Shown: piece by piece, positions 2,579-52,409 of the stretch
Layout of the letters: every line of letters starts with the position of its first letter
Numbering within the stretch: the stretch's first letter is position 1
Origin: Clostridia bacterium
Lineage (GTDB): Bacteria > Bacillota > Clostridia > Christensenellales > UBA1242
Reading direction: 5' to 3'
Length of the DNA stretch: 53,024 bases
Assembly (NCBI GenBank): GCA_017938505.1
Contig: JAGBBH010000077.1
Location: 1 to 53,024 of the forward strand
Translations under genes and position numbers: made by a program
The notes under the pieces: generated by a model
Databases searched by the model: none
What the model saw: only the letters and a program-made list of their open reading frames with translations
What the model was told of the DNA's origin: nothing

Positions 2579-4990
2579 ATGATAATTTTTGCAGATGAAA
2601 AATTGAATGTTAAAAAGTTGCTTCATGAAGCAGTGCATCAGGGAAGCAATAAGGCAAATTCAATTCAATTTGTTGCACCTATAAATAGCAATGCAACAAT
2701 AAAAATTGCTTTTGAATTGCCAAATGCAGAAAACACAAGACAGTATTTAATGGAAAGTGTTGGTGCATACGAAGATTATTACATGTGGAGTCTTGAAGTT
2801 CCTTACAATGTTTCAAAAGTTCCTGGCAGAGTAAGGTGTCAAATAATTGCCACAATCGGTTCACAACAAATTGGTAGTCAGGCGGTTGATTTTGTTGTTA
2901 CAGAAGGTGTTGAATACAACAATGCTGAATTTGAAGAAGACCAGTTTAGTGAAATTATTGGTTACATCAACGAAACAAAAGTTGGTGTTGCAAACAAAGT
3001 AAATATTAACTACAACGAAATGTTGTTGGTTGAAAGTCCTTTAACCACTTATAGTTCGGAGTGTTACAGAGCAATATATTCTTACAATGCGGTTGCAGGA
3101 AATATTGCAAACACAACAGGATACTTTGTATATCAATATAATGCAGACACAGGATCAGGTGAATATGTTGAAGCAACTGGTGCAGTTGATAATACTATAA
3201 CATATTACACAAGAGTTATAAACGGTTATGAAAGAGTTACATTGCCTGATGATTATGTTGAAGGTGTGAATTTCTATCAAATCAAAACACAACAATCAAT
3301 ATTCAATGATGAAAATGGTTTGTATTTCTACATTGTGCAAGATGGCAAGTCAAAAATCATGAGAATACAAAGTGATAAAATCACCATTGATGATTCCAAA
3401 GTTATTACAGAAAAAGACATGACCGCAGAAAATGTTGCCTTCAATGATGAAGACACAACACTTGGTGCAAAGAATGTCCAAGATGCAATTAAAATGGTGG
3501 ACAAAAAGGTTGATGCCATTGACACTTCACAAGTTATGACTTTTGTTAAACTTGGTATGTTAAGTATTCCAGTGAATGAATGGAGTTCTGTTCAATATTT
3601 ATATGTGAATGTTGAAGTTAGCGAAGCAGATTTTGGCAACACATACTTTGTATTTGATAGTGAAACAAAAGATTATAATGAAATTGTGTTGGGTGCAGAC
3701 AATTATGATTTAGAAACTGCATATTACAAACGAGAAGAATTTTATTATTATGATTTCAAACACAGGTTGTTAACAAACAGTGTTACACAAGATATTTTAC
3801 TTACTCCTGATGATGACACAAATGCATTGTGTGATGAAGAACACATTAAAATCTATCCGCATGTTGAGATGGGCGGAACAACAGGCAATGCTTATGGAAG
3901 AATTAAAGTCAGCAAGTTGCCATCAAGAACAATTACATTCACAGATGTAACATTGTATGGAACTGGCATTGCAAGTGAAATTGAAGGGTTGAAAGCAAGT
4001 CAAATTGACTTCACTCCAACAGATGACATTGAGTCAATAAGTGTTCAGGGTGCAGTTGTTGAAGTAAATACAAAAATAAACAATCATATTGAAAGCACAG
4101 AAGAAACCATTAAAGAAATGGAAAACACTGTTGCGAATTTGAGAGAATCCAAAACTGTTGATGCTTACATTGTTGACAATGCAGGTGCTTATAGTTCACT
4201 TTGGTTGAAAGATAAAGATGGCAATATTTTCAATACTGCTGATGGAACTTTGAACCAGTATGACAATTATTACATTGCACAGGAAGGCACAGATTATTCA
4301 GGAAACACTTATACCTGGAGTGGATCAAATTATGTTAAGGTTGCAGGAAACTTGACACTTGGAAGCGGTGCAACACAAGCATATCCAGGAAATGAAGGTG
4401 CAAAGAACAGAACAGATTTGACACAAGCAAAAAGTGATATTACAAAACTTGCACAAAGAATGACAACCGCAGAAAATACAAATTCTTCACAAGATAATAG
4501 TATTTCAGCATTGAACACAACAATAAACAGTTTGCAAACCATTGTAAACAACCTGAAATCTTTGGTTGGAAGTTCTTCATTGAACACATCATCAAAAGAC
4601 CTGGCAAATGCTATTAACGAATTAAAAAATGCAATGTTTATTCCAAATATAACAACTGGAACAAACAGAGCATCAGGCAAAAATACAATGTATCACAACT
4701 GGGTATGCTTTGACATTGGTTCATACAGAATGATATTTGGAAAGGTTGATGCACTTGATGCAAATGGCAATGTTAGAGTTTCATGGAATCAGGCAATGTT
4801 CAAAAGTGCAACAAATGACATAAATGGTTATGTTATTGTTCCTGGTTTCACAATTCAGTCAAGAACAGACAATCGTGGTATGGATGAACCAACACATGTA
4901 AAAGCAATTTACACAGATGGTTTCATTTTTTACAATTCAAATGGTTATACAACATGCGGAACTTATGTCGCATTTGGTAAAAAGGTTTAG
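2579..4990 (+). CDS. Phage tail fibre protein (803 aa)
   Basis: GGAGG RBS upstream. Contains the motif TLGAKNVQDAIKMVD, which I recall from many tail fibres. Also has a Ser/Asn/Thr-rich heptad-like stretch (NSISALNTTINSLQTIVNNLKSLV). Confidence 0.6.
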   Translation: MIIFADEKLNVKKLLHEAVHQGSNKANSIQFVAPINSNATIKIAFELPNAENTRQYLMESVGAYEDYYMWSLEVPYNVSKVPGRVRCQIIATIGSQQIGSQAVDFVVTEGVEYNNAEFEEDQFSEIIGYINETKVGVANKVNINYNEMLLVESPLTTYSSECYRAIYSYNAVAGNIANTTGYFVYQYNADTGSGEYVEATGAVDNTITYYTRVINGYERVTLPDDYVEGVNFYQIKTQQSIFNDENGLYFYIVQDGKSKIMRIQSDKITIDDSKVITEKDMTAENVAFNDEDTTLGAKNVQDAIKMVDKKVDAIDTSQVMTFVKLGMLSIPVNEWSSVQYLYVNVEVSEADFGNTYFVFDSETKDYNEIVLGADNYDLETAYYKREEFYYYDFKHRLLTNSVTQDILLTPDDDTNALCDEEHIKIYPHVEMGGTTGNAYGRIKVSKLPSRTITFTDVTLYGTGIASEIEGLKASQIDFTPTDDIESISVQGAVVEVNTKINNHIESTEETIKEMENTVANLRESKTVDAYIVDNAGAYSSLWLKDKDGNIFNTADGTLNQYDNYYIAQEGTDYSGNTYTWSGSNYVKVAGNLTLGSGATQAYPGNEGAKNRTDLTQAKSDITKLAQRMTTAENTNSSQDNSISALNTTINSLQTIVNNLKSLVGSSSLNTSSKDLANAINELKNAMFIPNITTGTNRASGKNTMYHNWVCFDIGSYRMIFGKVDALDANGNVRVSWNQAMFKSATNDINGYVIVPGFTIQSRTDNRGMDEPTHVKAIYTDGFIFYNSNGYTTCGTYVAFGKKV

Positions 4991-7607: not shown

Positions 7608-7755
7608 ATTTATCTATGCAAGCAGAGTAAAATGAAAATTTGAAAATATGCAAAAAAAGAAGGAGTGTTTGCCCTTCCAAGAATGGAAAAAAAGGTGATT
7701 TGATGCAACCTGGTGAACCAGTTGTTGCTATAAACAAACACAAAGGTGATTTTAT

Positions 7756-8796
7756 ATGAGATGTGAAAAACAATTAACTTATGATGAAGTTTTTACTTTT
7801 GACAATCTTTTGACTTGTGCAAAAGCATGTTTCAAAGGTGTTCGGTGGAAACCAAGCACACAGATTTATGAAACACAAATGATTAAAAATGTAAGTGAAA
7901 CATACAAGATCCTGAAAGACAGGAAATATAAGTCAAAAGGTTTTCATACATTTTATATTCACGAAAGGGGAAAAGTCAGGTATATTCAATCGGTTCATAT
8001 AAGCGAAAGAGTTGTGCAAAAATGCTTGTGTGATTATTGCCTGACACCAACATTCGCACCAACATTCATTTATGATAATGGTGCATGTATGAAGAAAAAG
8101 GGAACACATTTTGCAGTTAGAAGATTGAAAACACATCTTTCAAAATATTACAGGGAACATGGACATACTGGGTATGTCCTTTTGTTTGACCTGCACAATT
8201 ACTTCAATTCAATCAATCATGAAGTATTGTTGGAAAAAGTAAAACCAAAGATAAAAGATGAAGAATTGTTTAACATTTACAAGTATTTTATTGATTGCTT
8301 CAAAGGTGATGGTTTGGGGTTGGGTTCGCAAATTTCACAAATCAGTGCTTCCATTTACTTGAATGGTTTAGACCATTACATAAAAGAAAAATTACACATT
8401 AAGTATTATGGAAGATACATGGATGATGGTTACTTGATTTGCAATTCAAAATATGAATTAAAACATTGTTTGGAATGCATCAAAGAAATTGTCAAAGATT
8501 TGAAAATTGAACTAAACGAACATAAAACACAAATCAAAAAATTGCAAGATGGTTTCAGGTTTTTGAAAAGAAACTTTTATTTGAAACCTGATGGCAAAAT
8601 TGTGATGAAACCTTACAAAAAGAACATTCAAAGATATAAAACAAAATATCGCAAACTTTTGAAGAAAGGTGCATCACAACAAACACTTGATGTTTTACAA
8701 CAAACCTTTGTTGGTTACTTGAAAGAATTTCATTACAAAGATTATTACACAGGGAGGATAAGAAAATGTTTAGACCAAGAGAATTGCCAAACATAA
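7756..8796 (+). CDS. DGR reverse transcriptase (346 aa)
   Basis: Contains the YMDD catalytic box (GRYMDDGYL) and LGLGSQISQISASIYLN, the GxxxSQ motif typical of DGR RTs. No maturase or endonuclease extension. Lies immediately 3' of TR plus a ~150-nt spacer. Confidence 0.9.
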   Translation: MRCEKQLTYDEVFTFDNLLTCAKACFKGVRWKPSTQIYETQMIKNVSETYKILKDRKYKSKGFHTFYIHERGKVRYIQSVHISERVVQKCLCDYCLTPTFAPTFIYDNGACMKKKGTHFAVRRLKTHLSKYYREHGHTGYVLLFDLHNYFNSINHEVLLEKVKPKIKDEELFNIYKYFIDCFKGDGLGLGSQISQISASIYLNGLDHYIKEKLHIKYYGRYMDDGYLICNSKYELKHCLECIKEIVKDLKIELNEHKTQIKKLQDGFRFLKRNFYLKPDGKIVMKPYKKNIQRYKTKYRKLLKKGASQQTLDVLQQTFVGYLKEFHYKDYYTGRIRKCLDQENCQT

Positions 8797-12323: not shown

Positions 12324-12356
12324 TAAGTCAGCGGTTTTGCTGACTTATTTTTTTTT
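12324..12356 (+). terminator. Rho-independent terminator
   Basis: TAAGTCAGC-GGTTTT-GCTGACTTA followed by a T9 run. Confidence 0.65.
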
Positions 12357-16847: not shown

Positions 16848-16876
16848 TTGACTTTCATATCGTTTTATTTTACAAT
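16848..16876 (+). promoter_or_regulatory. Promoter TTGACT-N17-TACAAT, placed only 7 nt before the ATG at 16884
   Basis: -35 at 16848-16853 and -10 at 16871-16876. Confidence 0.45.
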
Positions 16877-16883
16877 ATAAAAT

Positions 16884-17372
16884 ATGAAATTTGCGAAGAA
16901 AAAAGGGTATAAAATTTGTCCTAGATGCGGAGAAAAATGTCTTATTGGACAAGAACGGTGCAATGAATGTAACCTTATTTTTTCGCGCTTGCAATATGCA
17001 TCAAACAAAGCAGCAAAGAAGAAATTGCGAAAATTTGACAACGATTTCATTGTTTATACAAGCACCTTTCCAAGTGATTTGAAATATTGGAAACTTTTGC
17101 TTTTGACAATATTTACCGGACTTTTTGGTGGGCATTATTATTATTGTGGAAAATATATCAAGGGTGGACTTATGACAGCATCTTTCATTTATACCCTCTT
17201 TTGCACGATTTTCAATCAAGTTATTGTTGAACAAATACCTGGCGGTGAAAGTATGTATGTCCTTGTCGGCATTGCAACTTTTTCGTGGATTGTCAGTTTA
17301 TGCTTTCTGCTTTGCAAAAAGTTTAAAGTGCCGGTCATTGTTGATATGCCTAAAAGTGAGGTGGTAGAATGA
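16884..17372 (+). CDS. Zinc-ribbon plus TM2-domain membrane protein
   Basis: CPRCGEKC...CNEC zinc ribbon. TM2-like [16 protein letters not shown]. Its TGA stop overlaps the mnmA start (ATGA). Confidence 0.7.
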
Positions 17373-33845: not shown

Positions 33846-34742
33846 ATGGGATTGTTTAAAAAGATTGGAAATGCATTAAAAAAGACAAAAGAAGCATTGG
33901 CAAGAAAAATCGATGCCTTGCTTTCTCATGGGGAAGTCGATGATGAACTTTTTGAAGATTTGACGGACATTTTGATTTCTTGTGATATAGGTGTTAAGTC
34001 ATCAATGGAAATTGTTGATGAGGTACGGGTAGAAGCACATAAAAGAAAAATTCGCAAAGCGGAAGGTGTTAAAGAACTTTTGAAAGAAACAATTGCGGGT
34101 TATTTTGAAAATGCTCCAAAAATTGACATTCAATATCCTGCAATTATCACAATTATTGGCGTTAATGGTGTTGGAAAAACAACAACAATTGGGAAACTTG
34201 CCAACTATTTCAAAAATCAGAAAAAAACAGTAACTCTTGTTGCTGGTGATACCTTTAGGGCGGCAGCATCTTCACAACTTAATGAGTGGGCTGGAAGAAC
34301 AAAAACAAGAATAATTAAACACGCAGAGGGAGCAGATGCCGCCGCTGTTGTGTTTGATGGAATTGCAAGTGCAAAAGCAAACAACACTGATGTTTTGCTT
34401 GTTGACACTGCAGGAAGATTGCATACGAAAGTAAATTTGATGTCAGAACTTCAAAAGATTGAAAGAATTATTGACAGAGAATATGACTCTGCGAATAAAT
34501 ATAACTTCATTGTTCTAGATGCAACAACCGGTCAAAATGCACTTTCACAAATTAATGCTTTTTCTGAATATGCAAAGATTGATGGAATCGTTTTGACAAA
34601 ACTTGACGGAACTGCCAAAGGTGGTGTGATTATTGCAATTGAAAAAGAATATAATCTTCCTGTTGTTTTTGTTGGAACTGGAGAAGGTGTTGACGACATT
34701 GATTTTTTCAATGCAAAAGAATTTGTTGACGAATTATTTTAA
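33846..34742 (+). CDS. ftsY: Signal recognition particle receptor FtsY
   Basis: Start taken at the internal ATG (MGLFKKIG). GVNGVGKTTTIGKLA, DTAGR and TKLDGTAKGG motifs. Confidence 0.9.
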   Translation: MGLFKKIGNALKKTKEALARKIDALLSHGEVDDELFEDLTDILISCDIGVKSSMEIVDEVRVEAHKRKIRKAEGVKELLKETIAGYFENAPKIDIQYPAIITIIGVNGVGKTTTIGKLANYFKNQKKTVTLVAGDTFRAAASSQLNEWAGRTKTRIIKHAEGADAAAVVFDGIASAKANNTDVLLVDTAGRLHTKVNLMSELQKIERIIDREYDSANKYNFIVLDATTGQNALSQINAFSEYAKIDGIVLTKLDGTAKGGVIIAIEKEYNLPVVFVGTGEGVDDIDFFNAKEFVDELF

Positions 34743-34750
34743 TTAAATTA

Positions 34751-34775
34751 AAGTCGAATTTTTCGACTTTTTTTT
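34751..34775 (+). terminator. Rho-independent terminator after ftsY
   Basis: AAGTCGAA-TTT-TTCGACTT followed by a T-run. Confidence 0.65.
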
Positions 34776-35048
34776 ATATTTGCATTTTAAATTATTTTTT
34801 TGATATTTATTTATATTTGTAAATTATATTGATATTCCTCAAAAATCGTATATTTTAGTGGGGAACATATAAATAATATTTTTATTTATATAATTAATAT
34901 CATTAATTGAAAAATATAGGTCAAATTATTTGGAAAAAGTGAAAAATATGTGTATAATAGTAATATGAAAAGAAAAACAAACTACTTATTTCAAGATAAA
35001 AATGAAGAAAAAATTTATAAAAAAACCTTTCCTAACTTAAAAATGAGA

Positions 35049-35058
35049 GGGGGGGGGG
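35049..35058 (+). repeat. Homopolymeric G10 tract at the 5' end of the surface-protein gene
   Basis: Ten consecutive G in an otherwise AT-rich intergenic/5' region. It lies between the ATG at 35043 and the long ORF. Confidence 0.9.
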
Positions 35059-35088
35059 TATAAGCAATATTCGCCACGTATTTGGGCG

Positions 35089-37920
35089 TTGGTTGTGTGC
35101 CTTGCATTTGTTTTTTTGGGCGGAATAATTGGGTTCGTTTTTCCTTTGTCGTCTATGAAAGATGACAACATCGTTGCAAATGAAGATGTGGTTACTTTTC
35201 AAAGAAGCGATGTGGGGTCCTCTTGGGCCTGTGAAATGTGTGTAGAAAATTGTACAACTGGAGAAACATATTGGGTTGAAGATGGTGAATCAGTTTCTTT
35301 TACTATAAATAGTAGCACGAATTATTGGTATATTTCTGATGACAATGTGTTTAATTATTACATATATATCGGCGATGACTCGGGAATGTCGGACAGGTAT
35401 TATGCAACTTATAGTCCTATGAATGGTAGTGAAAAGATTATTACTTTTGGAATTAGGGATCAGGAGTACAGTTTTGGTAGGACATATTTTAATGCAAATG
35501 GCGGCTCGTTTCAAAAATATGATGGAACTCACTCAAATAAGGTTTATAATGCTGAACAAAAGATAGGTAATTATAATGGGCAAAATGTTTATAAGGGCAA
35601 CAATGGCGAAGCATATTGTGCTTGGTTTTGGGGAATTTCTGGAAAAATCTATCCATTGCTTGTTTCAAGAACCCCAACATCAGTGTATTTTTATGACGAT
35701 AATGCTGGCGGACACACGGATTATCTTAGTTTTACATATAACGGCGAAACTTGGTATGTTTCAAACTCTTATCTTTTGGATATACAAAACTATTGGAATG
35801 ACCACACCGATTATCAAGCATTTATTGGTGTTGACCAATCTGGATATCTTCTTCATCAATTTGATACATTTGATTCGGAGGGAAATTGGCAATATGATGA
35901 ATATAGACTTATTACGAGTGAAGATGATTTGATTCGCTATGCAGCAGAAAAAATGCTGATAACACTTGATACAGAAACCTCCCTTTGGGAACAAGGGTTT
36001 TCTGGCGGGGGAATTCAGTTTCCAGATGACCCATATAGACGCTTTTACTCTTTTTCGGGTTGGTACACTGCTAGAAGTGGTGGAACAAAGGTTACTTCTT
36101 CAAGTTCAAAGGCTGGACACAACAGAACGCTGTATGCACAATATTCGCTTGGATGGTCAGATGTCATTGTTGACACAAATTGCGATGCTTTGGGTGGACA
36201 ATGGATTATTGATAATGATGGTGAATATGCATCTGTTAGTTCTAGCAGTTCATTAAACTATAACAGTTTTTATTATGTCTTAAATGACAACGGAGTGTCT
36301 TCAGTAAGTAATTTGAAAAAAACAGGGCATACAATTACTGGTATATCTGTATGCGATTCTTCAAGAAATCGTGGTAGTAAAGTTTATACTCTGTCAGAGT
36401 TGCAGAATGGAATTTCTGCATTGACGCTTTATCAAGATTATTACAACACATTTGGTGTTGACCCTGTTGTAGCGCACAAAATGTATATGATTTTTGTTTG
36501 GCAAAAGAATACATATACTCTATCAGTGCGTTTGGGAAGTTATAATTCAAGTTCGGGCTATACGGTTACTCTTTCTGCTCCAGGATGTTCAATTTCAAAC
36601 TCTAAATTGACACAAACAAATTCAACTTCAACAATTTATCATACTTATTCAACTACAGCATTAACAATTACTTTAACTCGAAGTGATGCACACTTACAGA
36701 TTTATGTTGATGGTAGTTTGGTTTCGCAAGCAGAAGGCTCGACATCTTATAGGTGGACGCCAAACGCAAACCGAACGCTAACTTGGTATCTTAGAGAATT
36801 ATCTACTGTTAGGGTATCTAGCGACGATAATGGAATTTCTGGTGTTACATTTAGTTCAAGTGCAAACAATCCTAGTGGTTGTTCTACAGTTTCAAACGCA
36901 ACATCTCTTACAAATGTAAGGCAAGGAACAATTGTTGATTTTAAGGCCAATGTAAAATCCGGATATATTTTTGAGGGTTGGTATAATGGCTCGACAAGAG
37001 TTTCAACAAGTGCCAGCTATTCAGGAGTAACAATTTCAGGTGATTTAAGTCTTACCGCAAAAGCTACAAAGATATATGATTTGATAAAATATGACAACAC
37101 AGGGCAATATCACTACTTTGAAGATGGGCATTACCCGCAATCCTATGTTGGAGATTCGCTGAATTCAACATTGAACAGTTGGTACACTTCACAATCTTCA
37201 ACGGCAACTTATGTTATTAATCGTCAGACAACATATTGTTATACATATAACGGAACAAAATATGCGAGGGTATATTGTCCAAAATCTAGCACAGTTACAT
37301 TAAGCAGTGGAAGCAGTAAGAGTTTCTATAGTGGCACATATTATTGGTTTACTGTTGCACCAATTCGTTGGAGGGTTAGTGATTATGCTGTGAGTTCAGA
37401 TTATTATTCGACAACACTTTATTCTAGATTTGTTAATGATGGGTGCGTGAATGGTGTAAGTGAATATGTCTTGCATTATGGCGCCATCAATGATTCAGTT
37501 GTGCCAACCCTTGAAGGCTGGAAGTATGTCGATGGGGGAGTCCATACTGATGTAAGATATAATAACAGTGCTGCAAATTGTTTGTCATATACAACCACTA
37601 TCAAAGAATTTGATTATTTTAACGACACAGGAACAAACAAAAAAGTGTTGCATGAGACAATTTCCTCAGAAGGGATTTATCAAGCATCAATAAGTGATAT
37701 CGATTCGGCAGGAATAACAGATTATAGGGCAAAGGCAACGGATTTGGTTTGTATGCTTGTTGGAATTGATTATGGTGATTATTGCAGTTATTCAACGAGA
37801 GATTTATATAACTTGGGTTGTGGAAAGTCTGTAACAGCAGACGGTACAGTGCGTAATTTGTGGCTTAATTCTGCTTGCGGTGTCAGATTTGTCTATGCAA
37901 GCACAGGGAAGTCTAGTTGA
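35089..37920 (+). CDS. Large surface protein with Listeria-Bacteroides (InlB B-type) repeats and a C-terminal lectin-like module
   Basis: The track ORF starts at TTG 35089 with no SD. A hydrophobic anchor or signal follows (VVCLAFVFLGGIIGFVF). Repeat motifs are YSFSGWYTARSGG...TLYAQY and GYIFEGWYNGS. The C-terminal ~270 aa are paralogous to residues ~65-340 of the 43287 gene. ATG 35043 would come into frame if the G tract lost 1 nt. Confidence 0.7.
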   Translation: MVVCLAFVFLGGIIGFVFPLSSMKDDNIVANEDVVTFQRSDVGSSWACEMCVENCTTGETYWVEDGESVSFTINSSTNYWYISDDNVFNYYIYIGDDSGMSDRYYATYSPMNGSEKIITFGIRDQEYSFGRTYFNANGGSFQKYDGTHSNKVYNAEQKIGNYNGQNVYKGNNGEAYCAWFWGISGKIYPLLVSRTPTSVYFYDDNAGGHTDYLSFTYNGETWYVSNSYLLDIQNYWNDHTDYQAFIGVDQSGYLLHQFDTFDSEGNWQYDEYRLITSEDDLIRYAAEKMLITLDTETSLWEQGFSGGGIQFPDDPYRRFYSFSGWYTARSGGTKVTSSSSKAGHNRTLYAQYSLGWSDVIVDTNCDALGGQWIIDNDGEYASVSSSSSLNYNSFYYVLNDNGVSSVSNLKKTGHTITGISVCDSSRNRGSKVYTLSELQNGISALTLYQDYYNTFGVDPVVAHKMYMIFVWQKNTYTLSVRLGSYNSSSGYTVTLSAPGCSISNSKLTQTNSTSTIYHTYSTTALTITLTRSDAHLQIYVDGSLVSQAEGSTSYRWTPNANRTLTWYLRELSTVRVSSDDNGISGVTFSSSANNPSGCSTVSNATSLTNVRQGTIVDFKANVKSGYIFEGWYNGSTRVSTSASYSGVTISGDLSLTAKATKIYDLIKYDNTGQYHYFEDGHYPQSYVGDSLNSTLNSWYTSQSSTATYVINRQTTYCYTYNGTKYARVYCPKSSTVTLSSGSSKSFYSGTYYWFTVAPIRWRVSDYAVSSDYYSTTLYSRFVNDGCVNGVSEYVLHYGAINDSVVPTLEGWKYVDGGVHTDVRYNNSAANCLSYTTTIKEFDYFNDTGTNKKVLHETISSEGIYQASISDIDSAGITDYRAKATDLVCMLVGIDYGDYCSYSTRDLYNLGCGKSVTADGTVRNLWLNSACGVRFVYASTGKSS

Positions 37921-38103
37921 TGGATAAATTTGGTGCGAATTTATTGTTGTAATTCGTTGTTATATTAAAGATTAATTAAAAAATGAATTTGTTGATAAAA
38001 AAACACAAAGAATATTCTTTGTGTTTTTTTTGTTTGTGTTTTTTTAATTTTTGTTATTAAAGAGATTTTCTTTAACAACAAAAGTGTCGAAAGAGATGAG
38101 AGT

Positions 38104-38583
38104 CTATTTTGTTTTTTCAATAGTTCCGCAAGAAATGCTTGCGTGAATTTTGCCGTTTATATCCGTTTTTGAATCAAAAAGTTTGAGTTCTTCTTGAGTG
38201 AGTTGTTTTGTGAGTTCTTGTTCGTTTGTTCTAATTCCTAAATCTACAAAGAATGAAAACATATTGATAAGATGTTTGTCTTCTTGTGTTAATGCTTTAC
38301 TTCTTTCTTCTTGAAGATAACTGTAAATTTGTCTGCGAACAACTTCTTTAACTTCAGGATTGTTGATAGGCAAAAAACAGTTTGCCATAACAAAATAACT
38401 TTGAGGCGAACTTTGCGTTTTGTCATAGTTTAAGGTTACGATTCTGAATTTGATATTTTTCAAAAAGTCATCTGTGATTGTTGTGATGCTTTTTACTTTT
38501 TCCAAGTTCTTGTTTGAGTGAATTCTGCTGAATGACTCAAGTCTTTTGCAATATCCAGATTCTTTAAATGGTGTTAAAATCAT
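38104..38583 (-). CDS. Hypothetical protein (159 aa)
   Basis: GGAGGG RBS. No motif recognised. Confidence 0.5.
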   Translation of the reverse strand: MILTPFKESGYCKRLESFSRIHSNKNLEKVKSITTITDDFLKNIKFRIVTLNYDKTQSSPQSYFVMANCFLPINNPEVKEVVRRQIYSYLQEERSKALTQEDKHLINMFSFFVDLGIRTNEQELTKQLTQEELKLFDSKTDINGKIHASISCGTIEKTK

Positions 38584-38747
38584 TATTGCCCTCCATAATT
38601 TAGTTTCAAGAGTTCTATTTACGACCTTATTTAATCATACATTTTTGCATTTGTCAATAGGCAATTTTGAGATTTTTGAAACTTATTTTTATAAAATAAG
38701 TCAAATTTTGACATTTTTCAACATATATCAAGTCTATAGGAGTTGGT

Positions 38748-42801: not shown

Positions 42802-43148
42802 GACAGTTGGGCAGATGGTCGCTGTGTGTTCGTAATGGACACAGAGAGGAAAGTCCGAGCATCAAAAGAACAAGGTGCCAGTTAACGGCTGGTGGAGGCG
42901 ACTCTAAGGATAGTGCAACAGAAATAGACTTCCATATTTTAAATATGGTAAAGGTGGAAAGGTAGGGTAAGAGCCTACCGGGTGATTGGCAACAATCATT
43001 GCTCTGTAAACCCCACTTGATGCAAGATTAAGTTTAGGCAAATGTGTGTTCTTTCACGCCTAACAAAAATATCGCTTGAACTTGTTGGCGACAACAAGTC
43101 TGGAAAGATGACCGTCTAATACAGAACTCGGCTTATAGCCCAAGTGTC
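42802..43148 (+). ncRNA. rnpB: RNase P RNA, bacterial type A-like
   Basis: Conserved GAGGAAAGTCCG, GGTGCCAGTTAACGGCTGG, AGTGCAACAGAAA, GGTAAGAGCCTACC and ACAGAACTCGGCTTATAG. P1 pairs ACAGTTGGGC with GCCCAAGTGT. Colinear with my recollection of the E. coli type A RNA. Confidence 0.85.
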
Positions 43149-43154
43149 AAAATT

Positions 43155-43178: not shown

Positions 43179-43286
43179 ATTGTTTATTATATATTATAAT
43201 TTTTAAAAACATTTGAAAATTCTGTAAAATTATTTGGAAAAATGATGTTTTTTGTATATAATAAAAAAGAAAAAGACAACTGATTT

Positions 43287-46200
43287 GTGCTGGAATTGAA
43301 ACAAAAAATTAATTTAAAGGAAAAAGCGTTGATAAGGAAATATTTTTTTGGATTTTTGATAGCAATTTTGGCAATAACCTCACTGTGCGTGGGGGTGGGT
43401 ATTTGCGGTTGCCTCCCTAACTCTCAAAAGGTCTATGCAGATAGTGAAATAAGTGCAAATTCTACCTCTAGCGGGCGATTTGAACTTAAATATGATAGCA
43501 TAAAGCAATATTTCTATTTTGAAGATGGATATTATCCGCAAAGTTATGTTGGAAATTCGTTGAACGCAACATTAAACTCTGCAGGACTTTCTGTGCAATA
43601 TTCTTTGACTGTTGCTGGAAATTTGTGTGGAGTATATACATATAACAATGAAGAATATTTAAAACTGACAGCGCCAAAGAGTGTTTCTGTTTCATTGGAC
43701 GGAACGAGTGTAAATTTTGTTGCTGGCAGTTTTTATTGGTTTAAGTTGGAGCCAATTCGCTGGAGAGTGAGTGATTTTGGAGTGGCACAAAGCAGTAAAC
43801 CTGCAGAATTTGTTAATATTTCTGAAGAATTTGCAAAAAAAGCAGTTAGTGATTTGGTTTTGGATTGGGGATCAATAACTGAAGGTTCAGTTTCAGAACG
43901 ATGGTTTTATACATCGAGTGCGATTTATTCTCAATTTGAATCAAATTTTTCTACAATGAGTAATGAAAGCAGTTTGAGTGGTTTGCAATTTGCAACAGAA
44001 GGAAGTTATGTGTTTGACTATTTTAATTCTTCACATATTAATGTTCCTGTGAACACTCAAACGAGGACCCTCATTGGAGTCTATCAAGTTTCGCAAGATG
44101 AATTAAATGAGAATTTTACAAACCAATGTGCTTTTGCGAGTGATTTAGTATGTATGTTATCCGGAATTTCAGACACGCAATTTTGCAATTATTGGACAAG
44201 GAACTTGTTTAACTTGAACAATGGGATTTACATTACTGATACGGGAATTTCAAGAAATCGCTATATGACATCTAACTGTGGCATAAGACTTTGTTATTCT
44301 GCTCTTGTTCCTGTTGGTGATGCGACACTAAAAATAGGAACAGAATTGAATGCTATTATGAAGAATGCTTCTGATTATTCAACTGAAGACACAACTGTCA
44401 AAAAAATTATTTTTGATTATTTTACGAATGGGACAGTTGGTAATTATGTTGTCAATGGAACTAATGTAATATCTGGAAAGTCTGGAAAAAGTTGTGGAGC
44501 AACTTCAGGTCAAATTTATTGCTATGGCAGAGGAACAGAAACTGTTTATGTGCTTTCTAACGCATCTATTGTTATGCCAAGTGATGCGTCATACTGCTTT
44601 TACAATTTTAAATCTATAACAAGCATTGTTTTTAACAATTTTGACACTTCAAATACAACTGATATGGAATATATGTTTGGGTCGTGTGGATACAGTGCCA
44701 CTGATGTGTATTTAGATTTGTCGAGTTTGAATACGGCGAATGTTACGAACATGAGAAGAATGTTTGACTCTTGTGGACAATATGCAACAAACAGTGTGTC
44801 GTTAGACCTATCAAGTTTCAACACGGCAAAAGTAACCAATATGCAAGGAATGTTTCGCTGGTTTGCAATGTATTATAATAGTTGTGCACACCTTGACTTA
44901 TCCAACTTTAATATGAGTTCTGTTACGGATGTAGCAAATATGTTTTATCAGGCAGGAATGAAAGCTCTTGACATTTCATTTAACTTCTCGCGGCTGTCAA
45001 GTTTGGGCGGTATTTTTTATAATAATGCCGTGACCAGCATTAACTTTTTATCGGTTGATACATCTAATATTACAGATATATCAGGTATGTTTGTTGATTG
45101 TTATAATCTTACCTCAATAGACTTATCATCATTTGACACATCAAATGTAACTGATATGTCCTTCATATTTTGGAGTTGCGATAAACTTACATCAGTAGAT
45201 TTATCATCATTTGACACATCAAAGGTAACTGATATGTCAGGGATGTTTAAACAATGCCTCAACCTCGAATCAATAGATTTATCATCGTTTGACACGCGAA
45301 ATGTGGTAAATATGAGTGAAATGTTTTCCGGGGCACGTTATGAGATGAAACTTAAGACGATTATTGTTTCTAATTTGTGGTTGACCAATGCGGTTACATC
45401 TTCAACAGATATGTTTTATTGTTGTTATAATTTGATTGGAGGAAGTGGAACAACATATAATCGTAGTTACATAGATAAAACTTATGCCCGAATTGACTTT
45501 GGCGGAAGTCTGCCAGGTTATTTGACGGATATAAATGGAGATGAAGATGCTGTTTATTGGCAAGAAGGAGTTTTGTTTAACGAACTTGATGCAGGTAATT
45601 TTTCTGTAATGGAAAAGGTTGTTTTTGACTATTTCACTGATGGGGTAGTTGGAAGATATCTTGAGAGAGGTAATAATGTTCTCTCCAACTTTTCTAGATT
45701 GCAACTAGGGGAGATTTATGTTTATTACGACTATGGTGCTCAGTGTGTTGCATATGTGTTGTCTAACAATCCTATATATTTGCATCAAGGTACTAATTTG
45801 TTTAGCGGTCTAGGGAGTTTGAAAGAGCTTGTTTTAAACAATTTTGACACTTCAAAAGTTACAGACATGTCGTATATGTTTGGGGGGTGTTATCAAATAG
45901 AAGAATTGGACCTTTCTTGTTTCAACACGGCAAAAGTTGAGAACTTGAACCAATTCTTTATGGGGTGCTCCGAACTTAAAAGGGTTTATGTTTCGGATAC
46001 ATGGGTGCTTTCTGACGAAGCACAAAGTTCTGATGAAGTAACTTTGGATTGTAATGAATATTTGACAGGAGGGAAGGGTTCAAAAGCAATAGATTTAAGC
46101 GATTACGCTACTTATGCTAGGGTGGACGGTGGTTCCGAGGCTCCTGGTTATCTAACACATATTTCAGATAAAAACAAAGTATTCTTGAAAGATGGGTGGG

Positions 46201-46859
46201 ATGTAAATCCGCTTTTAACTAGTGCTGATTATGGAGCTGAGTATTATTATTTAACATTTGATTATTTTACAGACGGAATTGAGGGAAATTATGTTGTAAA
46301 CGGGGACAATGTTATAGCAAACATTACTCCGATTGATGCAGGACTTGTATCAGGCAAAATTTTTATTTATGGTGATGGTGGCAGTGGACATATTTATGTT
46401 CTTTCAAATTACGAAATGATGTTTCCTCAAGATGCAAGTGGAATGTTTTACGGTTTGGAGTATGTTAGGGAAATTTATTTGTTAAATCTAAATCCTTCTT
46501 GTGCAACAAATTTATGTCAATTGTTTATGTGTTGTTATAATCTTAACAAAATCTATGTTGAGAATGATTGGGTGTTGACAGAGGAAGCTTTGTATTCTGA
46601 TGAGGTTTTTTTTGACACAGGTGAAATCATTGGTGGTGCAGGAACAAGTTCTTGGGAATCGGGTGAAGAGTCTGCATTATATGCGAGAATAGACGGAGTT
46701 CAGGGGCCTGGTTATTTTACGCATATTAGTTCTAAGACAAATTCTGAGCTTAACGAACAAGAAAAAGTTCCTTTTGCATTGGGCTCATTGTTTTCAGGGG
46801 TGTTTGGAGGCATTGTTTTATTTTGTATTGCAAAAAAAAAGAAAGAAAATTGTTTTTAA
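43287..46859 (+). CDS. BspA-type leucine-rich-repeat surface protein with an N-terminal lectin-like module and a C-terminal TM anchor
   Basis: Many ~26-aa units of the form LxSIDLSSFDTSNVTDMSxMF. The C-terminal hydrophobic segment is followed by KKKKEN. Start is uncertain: GTG 43287, or in-frame TTG 43329 after AAAGGA giving MIRKYFFGFLIAILAITSLCVGVGICGC. Confidence 0.8.
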   Translation: MLELKQKINLKEKALIRKYFFGFLIAILAITSLCVGVGICGCLPNSQKVYADSEISANSTSSGRFELKYDSIKQYFYFEDGYYPQSYVGNSLNATLNSAGLSVQYSLTVAGNLCGVYTYNNEEYLKLTAPKSVSVSLDGTSVNFVAGSFYWFKLEPIRWRVSDFGVAQSSKPAEFVNISEEFAKKAVSDLVLDWGSITEGSVSERWFYTSSAIYSQFESNFSTMSNESSLSGLQFATEGSYVFDYFNSSHINVPVNTQTRTLIGVYQVSQDELNENFTNQCAFASDLVCMLSGISDTQFCNYWTRNLFNLNNGIYITDTGISRNRYMTSNCGIRLCYSALVPVGDATLKIGTELNAIMKNASDYSTEDTTVKKIIFDYFTNGTVGNYVVNGTNVISGKSGKSCGATSGQIYCYGRGTETVYVLSNASIVMPSDASYCFYNFKSITSIVFNNFDTSNTTDMEYMFGSCGYSATDVYLDLSSLNTANVTNMRRMFDSCGQYATNSVSLDLSSFNTAKVTNMQGMFRWFAMYYNSCAHLDLSNFNMSSVTDVANMFYQAGMKALDISFNFSRLSSLGGIFYNNAVTSINFLSVDTSNITDISGMFVDCYNLTSIDLSSFDTSNVTDMSFIFWSCDKLTSVDLSSFDTSKVTDMSGMFKQCLNLESIDLSSFDTRNVVNMSEMFSGARYEMKLKTIIVSNLWLTNAVTSSTDMFYCCYNLIGGSGTTYNRSYIDKTYARIDFGGSLPGYLTDINGDEDAVYWQEGVLFNELDAGNFSVMEKVVFDYFTDGVVGRYLERGNNVLSNFSRLQLGEIYVYYDYGAQCVAYVLSNNPIYLHQGTNLFSGLGSLKELVLNNFDTSKVTDMSYMFGGCYQIEELDLSCFNTAKVENLNQFFMGCSELKRVYVSDTWVLSDEAQSSDEVTLDCNEYLTGGKGSKAIDLSDYATYARVDGGSEAPGYLTHISDKNKVFLKDGWDVNPLLTSADYGAEYYYLTFDYFTDGIEGNYVVNGDNVIANITPIDAGLVSGKIFIYGDGGSGHIYVLSNYEMMFPQDASGMFYGLEYVREIYLLNLNPSCATNLCQLFMCCYNLNKIYVENDWVLTEEALYSDEVFFDTGEIIGGAGTSSWESGEESALYARIDGVQGPGYFTHISSKTNSELNEQEKVPFALGSLFSGVFGGIVLFCIAKKKKENCF
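45108..45341 (+). repeat. Three tandem 78-bp LRR-coding units with near-identical 5' halves
   Basis: Units start at 45108, 45186 and 45264. The first ~53 nt of units 1 and 2 differ at only about 4 positions. Confidence 0.8.
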
Positions 46860-52031: not shown

Positions 52032-52059
52032 AAGCAAGCAAGAATGGCTTGCTTTTTTT
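52032..52059 (+). terminator. Rho-independent terminator after rpsI; a second copy lies at 52223-52251
   Basis: AAGCAAGC-N7-GCTTGCTT followed by T7. Confidence 0.65.
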
Positions 52060-52409
52060 GTTGCAAAATTTTTGCAACAATCTTTGCTTTGCAAAGGCAT
52101 TTTTCCAATATGGCGTTGTCGCACTCACTCTTGCGAGCAAGTTCGTGCTTCGTGCCATAGTTTGCGAGATGTTTTTTTTGGAAGCGTGATTTGAATGTAT
52201 GTATATTTAGATGAATTACGCCAAGCAAGCAAGAAGGGCTTGCTTTTTTTTGTTGCAAAATTTTTGCAACAATCTTTGCTTTGCAAAGGCATTTTTCCAA
52301 TATGGCGTTGTCGCACTCACCCTTGCGAGCAAGTTCGTGCTTCGTGCCATAGTTTGCGAGATGTTTTTTTGGAAGTGTGATTTGAATGTATGTTTATTTA
52401 GAGGAATTA
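52032..52409 (+). repeat. Tandem direct duplication, 2 x about 191 bp
   Basis: Copy A spans 52032-52222 and copy B spans 52223-52409. They are near-identical, with about 7 differences including two 1-nt T-run length changes. Confidence 0.85.

Follow-up and report, generated by a model that had tools for sequence, protein, structure and literature searches.

A G10 tract in the first codons of an accessory surface-protein gene from a gut Clostridium: a candidate slipped-strand switch

In a 53,024-nt stretch of DNA (the window) from an uncultured, spore-forming ruminant-gut Clostridium, a run of 10 Gs lies close to the start of the coding sequence in an accessory gene for a large, presumably surface-exposed protein, and there are reasonably good, though not compelling, grounds for regarding this as a slipped-strand contingency locus assembled in its OFF phase. 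What carries this reading is the tract itself, the geometry of the two reading frames that meet at it, the absence of a good alternative start for the long frame, and the homology of the N-terminus that the in-frame (ON) form has with related proteins. The locus is probably a further case of the known slipped-strand contingency type.

As envisaged, transcription would be from a promoter of the form TTGGAA-17-TATAAT, and either ATG 34965, possibly with a leaderless mRNA, or ATG 35043 would serve as the translation start. With G10, ribosomes would halt at TAA 35061 after 32 (or 6) codons, leaving the gene body without its basic N-region and without a proper start, and little or no anchored protein would be made. 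Replication slippage that removes one G, or adds two, would create a single ORF of 984 or 985 aa, whose product would consist, in order, of a K/R-rich cytoplasmic tail, Gly3, a transmembrane (TM) anchor, and then, at the cell surface, an N-terminal domain, InlB-type B-repeats and a C-terminal domain. A useful rate of tract-length change is presumed in this, as is a selective agent, whether host, phage or other.

The tract and the frames that meet in it

The G run directly follows ATG 35043-35045 and an AGA codon, exactly where the sequence-only reading had placed it, and the surroundings are AT-rich as then described. Over the 53 kb, G+C is 33.6%, C runs are all of 4 or fewer, and there is one G6 and a single G10, which is the sole run of either base longer than 6; on base composition, the expectation for runs of G10 or longer is ~0.004 per window. 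Syntenic DNA from four related genomes, ~80 kb in all, is without any G or C run of at least 6. Runs of A9/T9 are at 12348, 24536 and 46832 in the window. GGG accounts for 11.7% of the Gly codons in window genes, and the tract is thus built from a rare Gly codon. It is a compositional outlier that has been kept as a tract, since a second sample has G10 beside a different flanking allele, and its length falls within the range of hypermutable repeats (poly-G/C of 7-8 or more; cut-off from PMC6321876). (An interrupted form of the G tract would, as a hypothetical example, be GGGAGGGGGG.)

Decoding from 35043 is of ATG AGA GGG GGG GGG GTA TAA, i.e. M R G G G V and a stop at 35061-35063, in agreement with the initial translation. 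The long ORF, from TTG 35089 to its stop at 37918-37920, is in the +1 frame relative to this ATG. It is closed on its 5′ side by TGA 35044-35046, and the upstream frame is closed on its 3′ side by TAA 35061-35063, so that the two are open together only at the tract (Table 1) and any frameshift that joins them must occur there. When the tract is rebuilt in silico with lengths from G7 to G13, a single long ORF is obtained only with G9 (984 aa) or G12 (985 aa), which bears out the contention that removal of one G or addition of two puts ATG 35043 in frame. By this frame reconstruction G9 and G12 are ON lengths, with G8, G11 and the assembled G10 being OFF, and a change of one unit, near the 5′ end of the ORF, alters the reading frame.

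Table 1. Features at the locus, in window coordinates
Feature	Position	Strand	Detail
Intrinsic-terminator-like hairpin and T-run ending ftsY	34750-34770	+	9-bp stem, 3-nt loop, then TTTTTATATT
Promoter-like module	34923-34958	+	TTGGAA (34930-34935), 17 nt, TATAAT (34953-34958); 5′ of these, the 16-mer AAATTATTTGGAAAAA
Upstream reading frame	34965-35063	+	32-codon ORF as assembled, MKRKTNYLFQDKNEEKIYKKTFPNLKMRGGGV-stop
Stretch with both frames open	35047-35060	+	sole overlap of upstream and main frames, the tract itself
G10 homopolymer, proposed slipped-strand switch	35049-35058	+	run count, frame reconstruction; also in L002
Hydrophobic segment ALVVCLAFVFLGGIIGFVF, signal anchor or TM helix	35086-35142	+	best 19-residue Kyte-Doolittle window 2.81
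Main ORF as assembled	35089-37920	+	943 aa from TTG; predicted extracellular body
Flg_new / InlB B-repeat domain	36010-36141	+	best stretch, residues 349-392 of the 984-aa form; Pfam PF09479
Second B-repeat-like unit, Flg_new_2 / TIGR02543	36889-37062	+	residues 642-699
Conserved C-terminal domain, 286 aa	37060-37917	+	hallmark of a small N-anchored B-repeat protein family

Starts, promoter and genomic setting

The frame of ATG 35043 remains open in the 5′ direction to a second in-frame ATG, at 34965, which is 26 codons further upstream. An ATG-started frame of at least 28 codons running into the tract was found with 95 of 20,000 shuffles of the intergenic DNA (0.5%). Reconstruction with G9 and ATG 34965 yields the 984-aa protein with basic tail, membrane anchor, InlB-type B-repeats and conserved C-terminal domain. 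This ATG sits 7 nt 3′ of the -10 hexamer of TTGGAA-17-TATAAT, which in a consensus scan is the best sigma-70-like site of the region (10 of 12 matches), and at so short a distance the mRNA could be leaderless, with a presumed transcription start near ATG 34965. At 43227-43264, upstream of a DUF285 surface-protein gene, the 16-mer and the 17-nt spacing are found again, with ~77% identity extending over 95 nt, and this duplication of the module 5′ of a second surface-protein gene supports the putative promoter assignment. (The sequence-only reading contained neither ATG 34965 nor the adjoining promoter.)

The gene upstream is ftsY (ORF, and Pfam SRP54), and the terminator-like hairpin at its 3′ end points to the target gene being a separate transcription unit. 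The latter is within a variable island between ftsY and sigK. In relatives with an 82% identical AckA, sigK is directly 3′ of ftsY, and the closest relative has other genes at that place; by this comparison of gene order the target gene is accessory. Rfam gives no match within 34600-35400, and the predicted 5′ RNA fold is no better than that of shuffled sequences (z = -1.6). As a candidate attenuator, a terminator-like hairpin at 35084-35102 was set aside, having three G-U pairs and a displaced T-run.

For initiation on the long frame, TTG 35089 had been thought the sole start left. That was too narrow, as GTG 35095, from which a 941-aa product recorded from NCBI derives (P0060, which has no record as a gene product), and ATG 35155, from which a 921-aa product recorded from ENA derives (P0001), are also in frame. 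None of ATG 34965, ATG 35043, TTG 35089, GTG 35095 and ATG 35155 has a Shine-Dalgarno sequence, as had rightly been remarked for the TTG, whereas a GGAGG- or GAGG-type motif is present for roughly 30 of the 39 plausible genes of the window. The lack at TTG, GTG and ATG 35155, in a genome otherwise using strong Shine-Dalgarno sequences, is counted in favor of the switch. Moreover, TTG 35089 and GTG 35095 are both inside the hydrophobic segment, and their products would consequently be without a basic n-region. A role for the G run as the Shine-Dalgarno sequence of a start further 3′ was discarded, since there is no ATG, GTG, TTG or in-frame near-cognate codon 5-12 nt 3′ of it.

The protein and its relatives

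Basic tail and predicted TM segment are present together only in the G9/G12 frame (frame reconstruction, Kyte-Doolittle), where both would be fused to a 940-aa putative extracellular region; a basic N-region with a hydrophobic core had been anticipated for the ON form. Within the body, the match to PF09479 is 47 bits against a Pfam cut-off of 27, internalin B B-repeat 2y5p is a PDB sequence match with E=0.005, and the second unit scores 38.1 bits with TIGR02543 (cut-off 20.95) and 17.4 bits, under the Pfam cut-off, with Flg_new_2. With at least one repeat above a curated score, here by PF09479 and TIGR02543, the protein can, by its repeats, be classed with InlB B-repeat surface proteins. NCBIfam and PDB sequence searches yielded nothing beyond the B-repeat, and the target protein has no LRR or LPXTG features. 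The combination of a TM anchor, Flg_new/InlB B-repeats and location in a variable island is that of an accessory surface determinant, with surface exposure being presumptive.

The C-terminal domain appears, from database searches, to be previously undescribed. It has 157 cluster representatives at E<=1e-3 among 1.84 billion proteins, and a word-indexed protein search with it returned one fragment only. Its AlphaFold model has a pLDDT of 92.8 (an earlier model from 5 sequences, pLDDT 42, was unusable). Comparison of the model with PDB folds gave no match with E<=0.001, the sole structural hint being a local 40-residue similarity of the predicted fold to the C-terminal domain of Legionella Lcl. 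The initial description of the protein as ‘adhesin-like’ is conjectural, the confident C-terminal model being without any significant counterpart among solved structures.

Homologues with the same C-terminal domain all begin with a K/R-rich tail and a TM segment. For P0190, the closest homologue of full architecture, the alignment begins at R-I-W, upstream of TTG 35089, and P0203 has an N-terminus, MKCSSGGGYSRKPLKIAAS plus TM, with the same layout as that predicted for the ON form here, MRGGGYKQYSPRIW plus TM. On these alignments, homology of the ON-form N-terminus reaches across TTG 35089. At the level of protein sequence, family members have a 6.4-fold enrichment of the tripeptide GGG within their first 60 residues (p=3e-12), and for several of them the called start is at GGG or immediately before it, with no TM segment. 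One 90% cluster of the family has two different called N-termini.

P0203, in which M..GGGY..basic..TM is in one continuous frame, is pertinent to a further issue, namely whether protein is made from the G10 allele as it stands, by a +1 ribosomal shift (in the G run or at GUA-UAA, with an SD-like G run as in prfB), by transcriptional slippage, or by weak initiation at TTG 35089 or GTG 35095, G10 then representing a low-expression state. The chance of this is rather slim. It is true that tRNA-Gly can shift forward by one base at any point of the run and still pair perfectly, that the 0-frame stop is two codons past the run, and that two strains have the same G10. In addition, GGGGGUAU is common to the window and the E. 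coli prfB shift site, AGGGGGUAUCUUUGAC, with the likeness extending to an SD-like AGGGGG and then UAU just 5′ of a +1 shift near a stop (window GGGGGGGGGGUAUAAG, for which the required shift is also +1). However, a slippery Gly codon in the P site does not coincide with a stop in the A site, the order being GGG GUA UAA with poor re-pairing of GUA to UAU, so that the prfB hallmark of a slippery codon directly before the stop is missing; the spacing is also different and there is no apparent autoregulatory logic. Nor was a stimulatory RNA structure found (fold z and Rfam results above). Transcriptional slippage is disfavored because G:C-rich hybrids slip poorly, and weak initiation by the want of a Shine-Dalgarno sequence for the TTG and GTG and of a basic n-region for the resulting anchor. 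The out-of-frame arrangement is not conserved in homologues (P0203 has one frame, and the others have uninterrupted N-termini), and the GGGY junction of P0203 means that the fused frame can be encoded directly.

A different disposition is found in the gene for P0016, a homologue from another species, where poly-G is in the spacer of the best promoter-like site, TTGATA-N18/19-TATACT, a promoter reading that comes from a consensus scan and in which spacers of 18 and 19 are both longer than the optimum. Four assemblies have G9 there and two have G10, a split that follows two sequence clades and for which a single change suffices; the polymorphism is therefore no proof of high-frequency switching. 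With this tract in a promoter spacer, the family seems to use tracts at either control level, coding or promoter. (For the P0038 homologue, a leaderless-type 5′ promoter was looked for and is without support in the scan.) A decidedly tentative extension, more open to doubt than the proposal for the single locus, is that uncultured Clostridia of the gut and rumen would have a poly-G phasome controlling the N-anchored B-repeat surface proteins as a whole family, where the tracts would be in first codons (the window, P0203-like GGGY and GGG-start members) or in a promoter spacer (P0016), and OFF states would predominate in gut populations.

The P0016 case also raises the prospect, a very slight one, that the window tract acts on transcription, either as the 16-nt spacer between TTAAAA and TATAAG of a weak internal promoter, with a short-leader transcript for TTG 35089, or as a protein-binding or structural element. 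Just as TATACT is directly after the P0016 poly-G, TATAAG is directly 3′ of the window tract. TATAAG, though, is without the invariant final T, its -35 candidate is poor, the promoter scan did not report it, and such a role leaves unexplained both the 28-codon open upstream frame and the ON-form N-terminal homology.

Tract length in other assemblies and parallels elsewhere

Comparison of tract length in related assemblies, a step suggested by the sequence-only reading, found no variation at the locus: the tract is present, and G10, in L002 as in the window, a 19-N gap covers it exactly in L001, and lengths of 9 or 11 were not encountered. Hence, of the earlier case for slipped-strand ON/OFF switching, the structural layout stands and has been joined by the homologue N-termini, but length heterogeneity, its defining property, is not seen at the locus (G10, G10 and the 19-N gap). 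L002 is from another sample, and is weak as evidence for tract length: its contig, of 1.5 kb, ends 10 nt from the tract and is fused to an impB/mucB-type gene that is unrelated. A full-length G9 or G12 product is absent from a 15-billion-protein collection, a protein-cluster search retrieved three members only, none of the three with an ON-length N-terminus, and a locus search of 185,579 species genomes plus JGI metagenomes revealed distant B-repeat matches only.

In L001 the 943-codon main ORF is identical over the whole gene. Around the tract there are 3 non-synonymous substitutions within 32 nt, as against 2 differences in the remaining 17.2 kb. An origin of these SNPs in NovaSeq colour-channel errors was rejected, as the directions of change are unlike simple signal loss on either strand and they are common to two samples; they are treated as real.

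A frameshift that has become fixed, i.e. a one-base expansion of an earlier G9 that created a young pseudogene whose tract is not selected for mutability, is unlikely, though not strikingly so. Both tract-spanning assemblies are out of frame by an equal amount, the databases searched hold no ON version, and the 3 substitutions at the tract might stem from a dead N-terminus being under relaxed constraint. However, the body of 943 codons is intact and does not differ between strains, a ten-base run of rare codons is hard to arrive at in a 34% G+C genome without selection, and homologues have poly-G tracts or GGG motifs at that gene end too, which argues for a recurrent, maintained feature. Relevant also is that homopolymer slippage is far more frequent than point mutation, and G10 should revert far faster than would a point mutation.

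The L001 and L002 samples are labelled to a study that used NovaSeq two-colour chemistry and PCR-free libraries (PMC8199421). Poly-G is a trouble spot for this chemistry, and the assemblies are metagenomic, so the contig breaks at the tract may be technical and uninformative on heterogeneity. It is also conceivable, albeit quite improbable, that the true tract is G9 (or G12) in an ordinary intact gene and that G10 is an assembly or sequencing error. The platform and the metagenomic nature of the assemblies lend this some credence, as does the breakage of assemblies at the exact spot (the L001 gap and the L002 contig end), which shows the reads to be problematic there. Yet the two assemblies with G10 come from separate samples and differ in their flanking alleles, PCR-free libraries remove most slippage artefacts, and the consensus for a 10-mer homopolymer is usually right even when individual reads are noisy.

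For the favored slipped-strand switch, close parallels are the intragenic poly-G/C loci of Campylobacter jejuni, Neisseria and Haemophilus, where translation is phase-variable through slipped-strand mispairing. In these, the ORF for a surface-associated product has a long G run close to its 5′ end and a one-base change toggles between full-length and truncated products. The length of 10 is well above the PhasomeIt cut-off of 7, poly-G/C of at least 7 being accepted for candidate phase-variable loci, and in C. jejuni NCTC 11168 all poly-G/C tracts of at least 8 are reported to vary between longitudinal isolates (PMC6321876). In contrast to those organisms, the host here is an uncultured spore-forming, Gram-positive-type ruminant-gut Clostridium, and, unlike a C. 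jejuni-type phasome, there is one tract in 53 kb, length variation is not seen and the mRNA is possibly leaderless. In a review of phase variation, Clostridia come up solely in connection with DNA inversion, in C. difficile (PMC11868660).

Listeria monocytogenes inlA is comparable in encoding an internalin-type surface protein of a Firmicute (the target has InlB-type B-repeats) and in having a homopolymer a few codons past the start, with a tiny peptide resulting when out of frame (A7 is in frame, and A6 gives an 8-aa peptide). Reversion at its A6/A7 tract was measured at ~1000 times the point-mutation rate, and in the same study poly-G and poly-C were not over-represented in coding genes (PMC2831843). 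Unlike inlA, the present case involves poly-G rather than poly-A, 10 rather than 6-7 bases, and an N-terminal TM anchor with no LRR or LPXTG. The promoter-spacer switches of N. meningitidis porA and opc, and of Mycoplasma vlp, are resembled by the P0016 homologue with its G9/G10 in a promoter-like site, whereas the window tract is in coding sequence. H. pylori sabA, whose promoter and coding region each have repeat tracts (PMC2715451), is akin to the apparent use of either level by this family. The Gardnerella NanH3 sialidase, in the outline given by its preprint (bioRxiv 10.1101/2020.09.16.300947), is likewise a wall- or surface-associated protein from a Gram-positive organism (commensal or pathobiont), controlled by slippage within its gene, though the phylum and the protein are different.

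If the tract does switch, a gut commensal Clostridium varies a large surface protein by a bet-hedging device best known from mucosal pathogens (Campylobacter, Neisseria and Haemophilus among them), which bears on whether SSR-driven phase variation truly concentrates in pathogens or reflects database bias (PMC11868660). Were the phasome reading also true, commensal Clostridia would have an SSR-type multi-locus contingency system. From a practical perspective, counts of tract length in metagenomic reads could report the surface phase of a population. Gene callers mis-start the gene, giving 921- and 941-aa products without the anchor, and similar mis-starts have probably occurred with several homologues; surface proteomes predicted from MAGs would miss or mislocalise such proteins.

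Tract, reading frames and encoded protein

Ten Gs at 35049-35058 follow ATG 35043 and an AGA codon, and as assembled that ATG is decoded, just as the sequence-only reading had it, as M R G G G V before a TAA at 35061-35063. The long ORF, 943 aa from TTG 35089 to 37920, is in the +1 frame relative to ATG 35043. On rebuilding the tract with 7 to 13 Gs, one long ORF results with G9 (984 aa) and G12 (985 aa) only, which bears out the proposal that one G fewer or two more brings ATG 35043 in frame. The main frame, that of the long ORF, is shut by TGA 35044-35046 and the upstream frame, that of ATG 35043, by the TAA; both are open together at 35047-35060 alone, i.e. at the tract. Window G+C is 33.6%, with a single G6, this single G10 and C runs of 4 at most. 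From base composition, runs such as G10 are expected ~0.004 times per window, and GGG is the rarest Gly codon (11.7% of Gly codons in the genes of the window). Four related genomes, compared over ~80 kb of syntenic DNA, contain no G or C run of at least 6. Chance does not account for the tract.

The G9 product would be MKRKTNYLFQDKNEEKIYKKTFPNLKMRGGGYKQYSPRIW, then ALVVCLAFVFLGGIIGFVF (Kyte-Doolittle 2.81), then ~920 more residues. Flg_new (InlB B-repeat) is over the Pfam threshold, with Flg_new_2 weaker, NCBIfam gives TIGR02543, and the sole PDB sequence match is the internalin B B-repeat. The C-terminal 286 residues form a domain that 157 cluster representatives share in a search of 1.84 billion proteins, usually C-terminal in large B-repeat proteins. 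Its model, a confident one from a 26-sequence alignment (pLDDT 92.8, pTM 0.91), has no Foldseek match in the PDB at E<=0.001, and the only hints are local similarity over 40 residues to the C-terminal domain of Legionella Lcl, and C-type-lectin matches of low score. Of the earlier designations, ‘surface protein’ is on these grounds a reasonable inference and ‘adhesin-like’ a guess.

Homologous N-termini, putative promoter and start codons

In homologues with the same C-terminal domain (P0016, P0022, P0038 and many representatives) the N-terminus is a K/R-rich tail and then a hydrophobic segment often ending GG(G), in line with the basic N-region and hydrophobic core that the in-frame product had been said to gain. 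The closest full-architecture homologue, P0190, has the N-terminus MKLKKWTICLCSVFIG and aligns over 378 columns (E=2e-18) from the target's R-I-W, three to four codons 5′ of TTG 35089. Another, P0203 (‘InlB B-repeat-containing protein [Clostridia bacterium]’), starts MKCSSGGGYSRKPLKIAAS followed by a TM segment, and its ENA twin P0339 is 24 codons longer upstream; the target counterpart is MRGGGYKQYSPRIW plus TM, with 26 upstream codons. The short N-terminal match of P0203 to the target (E=0.79) is not significant alone, but is equivalent in position. Together, the tail and TM of the homologues, the P0190 alignment and the P0203 layout imply that in its functional form the gene has to run across the tract.

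The frame of ATG 35043 is open for 26 codons further back, to ATG 34965, and an ATG-started frame of at least this length entering the tract arose in 95 of 20000 shuffles of intergenic DNA. Of the sigma-70-like sites in the region, the best has its -10 hexamer 7 nt before ATG 34965. The promoter-like module (34923-34958) recurs at 43227-43264, with the exact 16-mer AAATTATTTGGAAAAA, the same hexamers and spacing, and ~77% identity over 95 nt, and its duplication upstream of a DUF285/BspA-like gene strengthens the promoter call. That gene lacks a G tract, and its true start is likely TTG 43331, with an AAGGA Shine-Dalgarno. Given a TATAAT 7 nt before ATG 34965 in a duplicated promoter-like module, a leaderless mRNA beginning at the A of that ATG is possible. 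The gene at 16884 likewise has no Shine-Dalgarno and has TACAAT 7 nt 5′ of its ATG (16859-16886); it is perhaps a further start of leaderless type, and would then be consistent with a leaderless reading of ATG 34965.

TTG 35089 had been taken as the only start left to the long ORF, and one without a Shine-Dalgarno. The latter part holds, for all candidate starts (34965, 35043, 35089, 35095 and 35155), with a GGAGG- or GAGG-type motif being present at most genes of the window; the former does not, as public gene calls use GTG 35095 (941 aa, NCBI), inside the hydrophobic segment, and ATG 35155 (921 aa, ENA), beyond it. Expression from G10, by weak TTG/GTG initiation or by +1 recoding, we consider improbable: GGGGGUAU resembles prfB, but the slippery-codon-plus-stop rule is not followed.

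Features of the locus and of other parts of the window
Feature	Position	Strand	Length	Remark
ftsY terminator	34750-34770	+		precedes sigma-70-like site
Sigma-70-like site TTGGAA-17-TATAAT	34930-34958	+		best such site in region
159-aa ORF	38104-38583	reverse	159 aa	no family assignment
RNase P RNA	42803-43151			class A (276 bits)
DUF285/BspA-like surface-protein ORF	43287-46859		1190 aa	downstream of module copy

Tract length and probable phase variation

Only two other assemblies of the locus were found, L001 and L002, both labelled XIEF21-1, a label taken as that of the ruminant-gut survey of Xie et al. 2021, for which NovaSeq 150-bp reads from PCR-free libraries were assembled with MEGAHIT and IDBA-UD (PMC8199421). 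L001 runs collinear with the window, starting at its first base, with 2 differences in 17.2 kb outside the tract region, and has 19 N precisely across the tract. L002, from a different sample, has G10, and starts 10 nt before it. This 1.5-kb contig changes after 741 nt, following codon 233 of the TTG-started ORF, to the 3′ end of an impB/mucB/samB-type (Y-family polymerase) gene (742-1488; Pfam IMS_C, E=3e-11), a junction due either to chimeric assembly or to insertion of a mobile element in that sample, and its G10 is weak evidence. The comparison with related assemblies that had been suggested as a check thus gives G10 in the window and in L002 and a gap in L001, with no length variation seen. 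A two-colour instrument could by itself account for the contig breaks at the tract. A miscalled homopolymer length is, in our estimation, quite unlikely. Relative to the window, L001 and L002 share three substitutions in a 32-nt stretch that includes the tract: G>T at 35047, A>C at 35069 and G>T at 35078, all non-synonymous (ON-frame R>I, Y>S and R>L respectively), a density far above that in the rest of the locus. Candidate causes are mutagenesis associated with the repeat, selection on the tail (relaxed or diversifying), a patch of recombination, and systematic error next to poly-G.

Functionally the arrangement is akin to intragenic poly-G loci in Campylobacter and Neisseria, and to the 5′ poly(A) tract in Listeria inlA (PMC2831843). 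The accepted cut-off is a G or C run of at least 7, and in C. jejuni NCTC 11168 every poly-G/C tract of at least 8 varies (PMC6321876). In tract length, placement, outlier status and gene type the target resembles simple-sequence contingency loci, so that the ‘classic’ slipped-strand ON/OFF arrangement first perceived there is upheld in these respects, though not by variation in length at the locus. The best-supported reading, and one we hold to be probable, is a slipped-strand translational switch caught in its OFF phase, G10, with slipped-strand change at the tract toggling translation. A fixed frameshift having no switching role, with which G10 in both the window and L002 would accord, is rather unlikely. 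For Clostridia, a 2025 review has phase variation by DNA inversion in C. difficile (PMC11868660), and the switch would be new for its lineage, while its mechanism would be a known one.

Other poly-G tracts in the family, and the variable island

In another species, poly-G lies within the spacer of TTGATA-N-TATACT, the best promoter-like site of the gene for P0016 (L011 2818-2847, with equivalents in L018-L022). This poly-G is kept as a tract and is polymorphic in length, G9 in four of six assemblies and G10 in two, following two sequence clades. In the P0022 gene, the spacer of the homologous promoter is 17 nt long and lacks such a tract; the palindrome TTGAATATgtTTacATATTCAA, which follows the P0016 promoter, is also upstream of the P0022 gene (in L013). 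A role in transcription for the target's own tract seems very improbable. In L008, a B-repeat ORF of 922 aa is separated by a 19-nt gap from a second, of 1015 aa, and the gap holds a G9 (4481-4489) that ends 7 nt short of the second ORF's ATG. A BACON-like domain seems split across the end of the first ORF and the start of the second. With the stop of the first upstream of the tract, a simple alteration of tract length would not join the two. A G8 (L013 4624-4631) directly follows the P0022-gene terminator, ~110 nt upstream of a DUF3792 gene.

At the protein level, 98 family representatives show a 6.4-fold enrichment of the GGG tripeptide within their first 60 residues (p=3e-12). Several members are called from GGG or just before and have no TM segment, namely P0239 (MKSGGGV), P0286 (MAGGGIS), P0325 (MTILRGGGAS), P0276 and P0304, and in one 90% cluster near-identical genes have two different called N-termini (P0198 versus P0342). 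Frequent out-of-frame G tracts in the first codons would lead gene callers to such truncated and discordant N-termini, which points to frameshifting G tracts as a common feature of the family; if confirmed, this would deserve more interest than the target alone.

Upstream of the target are pta-ackA, rpmF, plsX, rnc, smc and ftsY, and downstream is sigK. Among named AckA sequences the best matches (75% identity) belong to ‘Clostridia bacterium’ MAGs and Candidatus Caccovivens. When the ftsY-sigK interval (34743-38747) is compared with that of relatives (L014-L017), those with 82% identical AckA have sigK directly after ftsY, and the closest (AckA 92%) has other genes there together with a homologue (53% identity) of the 159-aa reverse ORF. 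An interval that is empty or differently filled points to the target being an accessory gene in a variable island, a placement common for contingency genes. Elsewhere in the window, an RT-2 RNA match at 7613-7761 is just at the gathering score (40.7 versus 40), and near its end there is a 192-nt tandem duplication (52032-52409; 2 copies, 96% identical).
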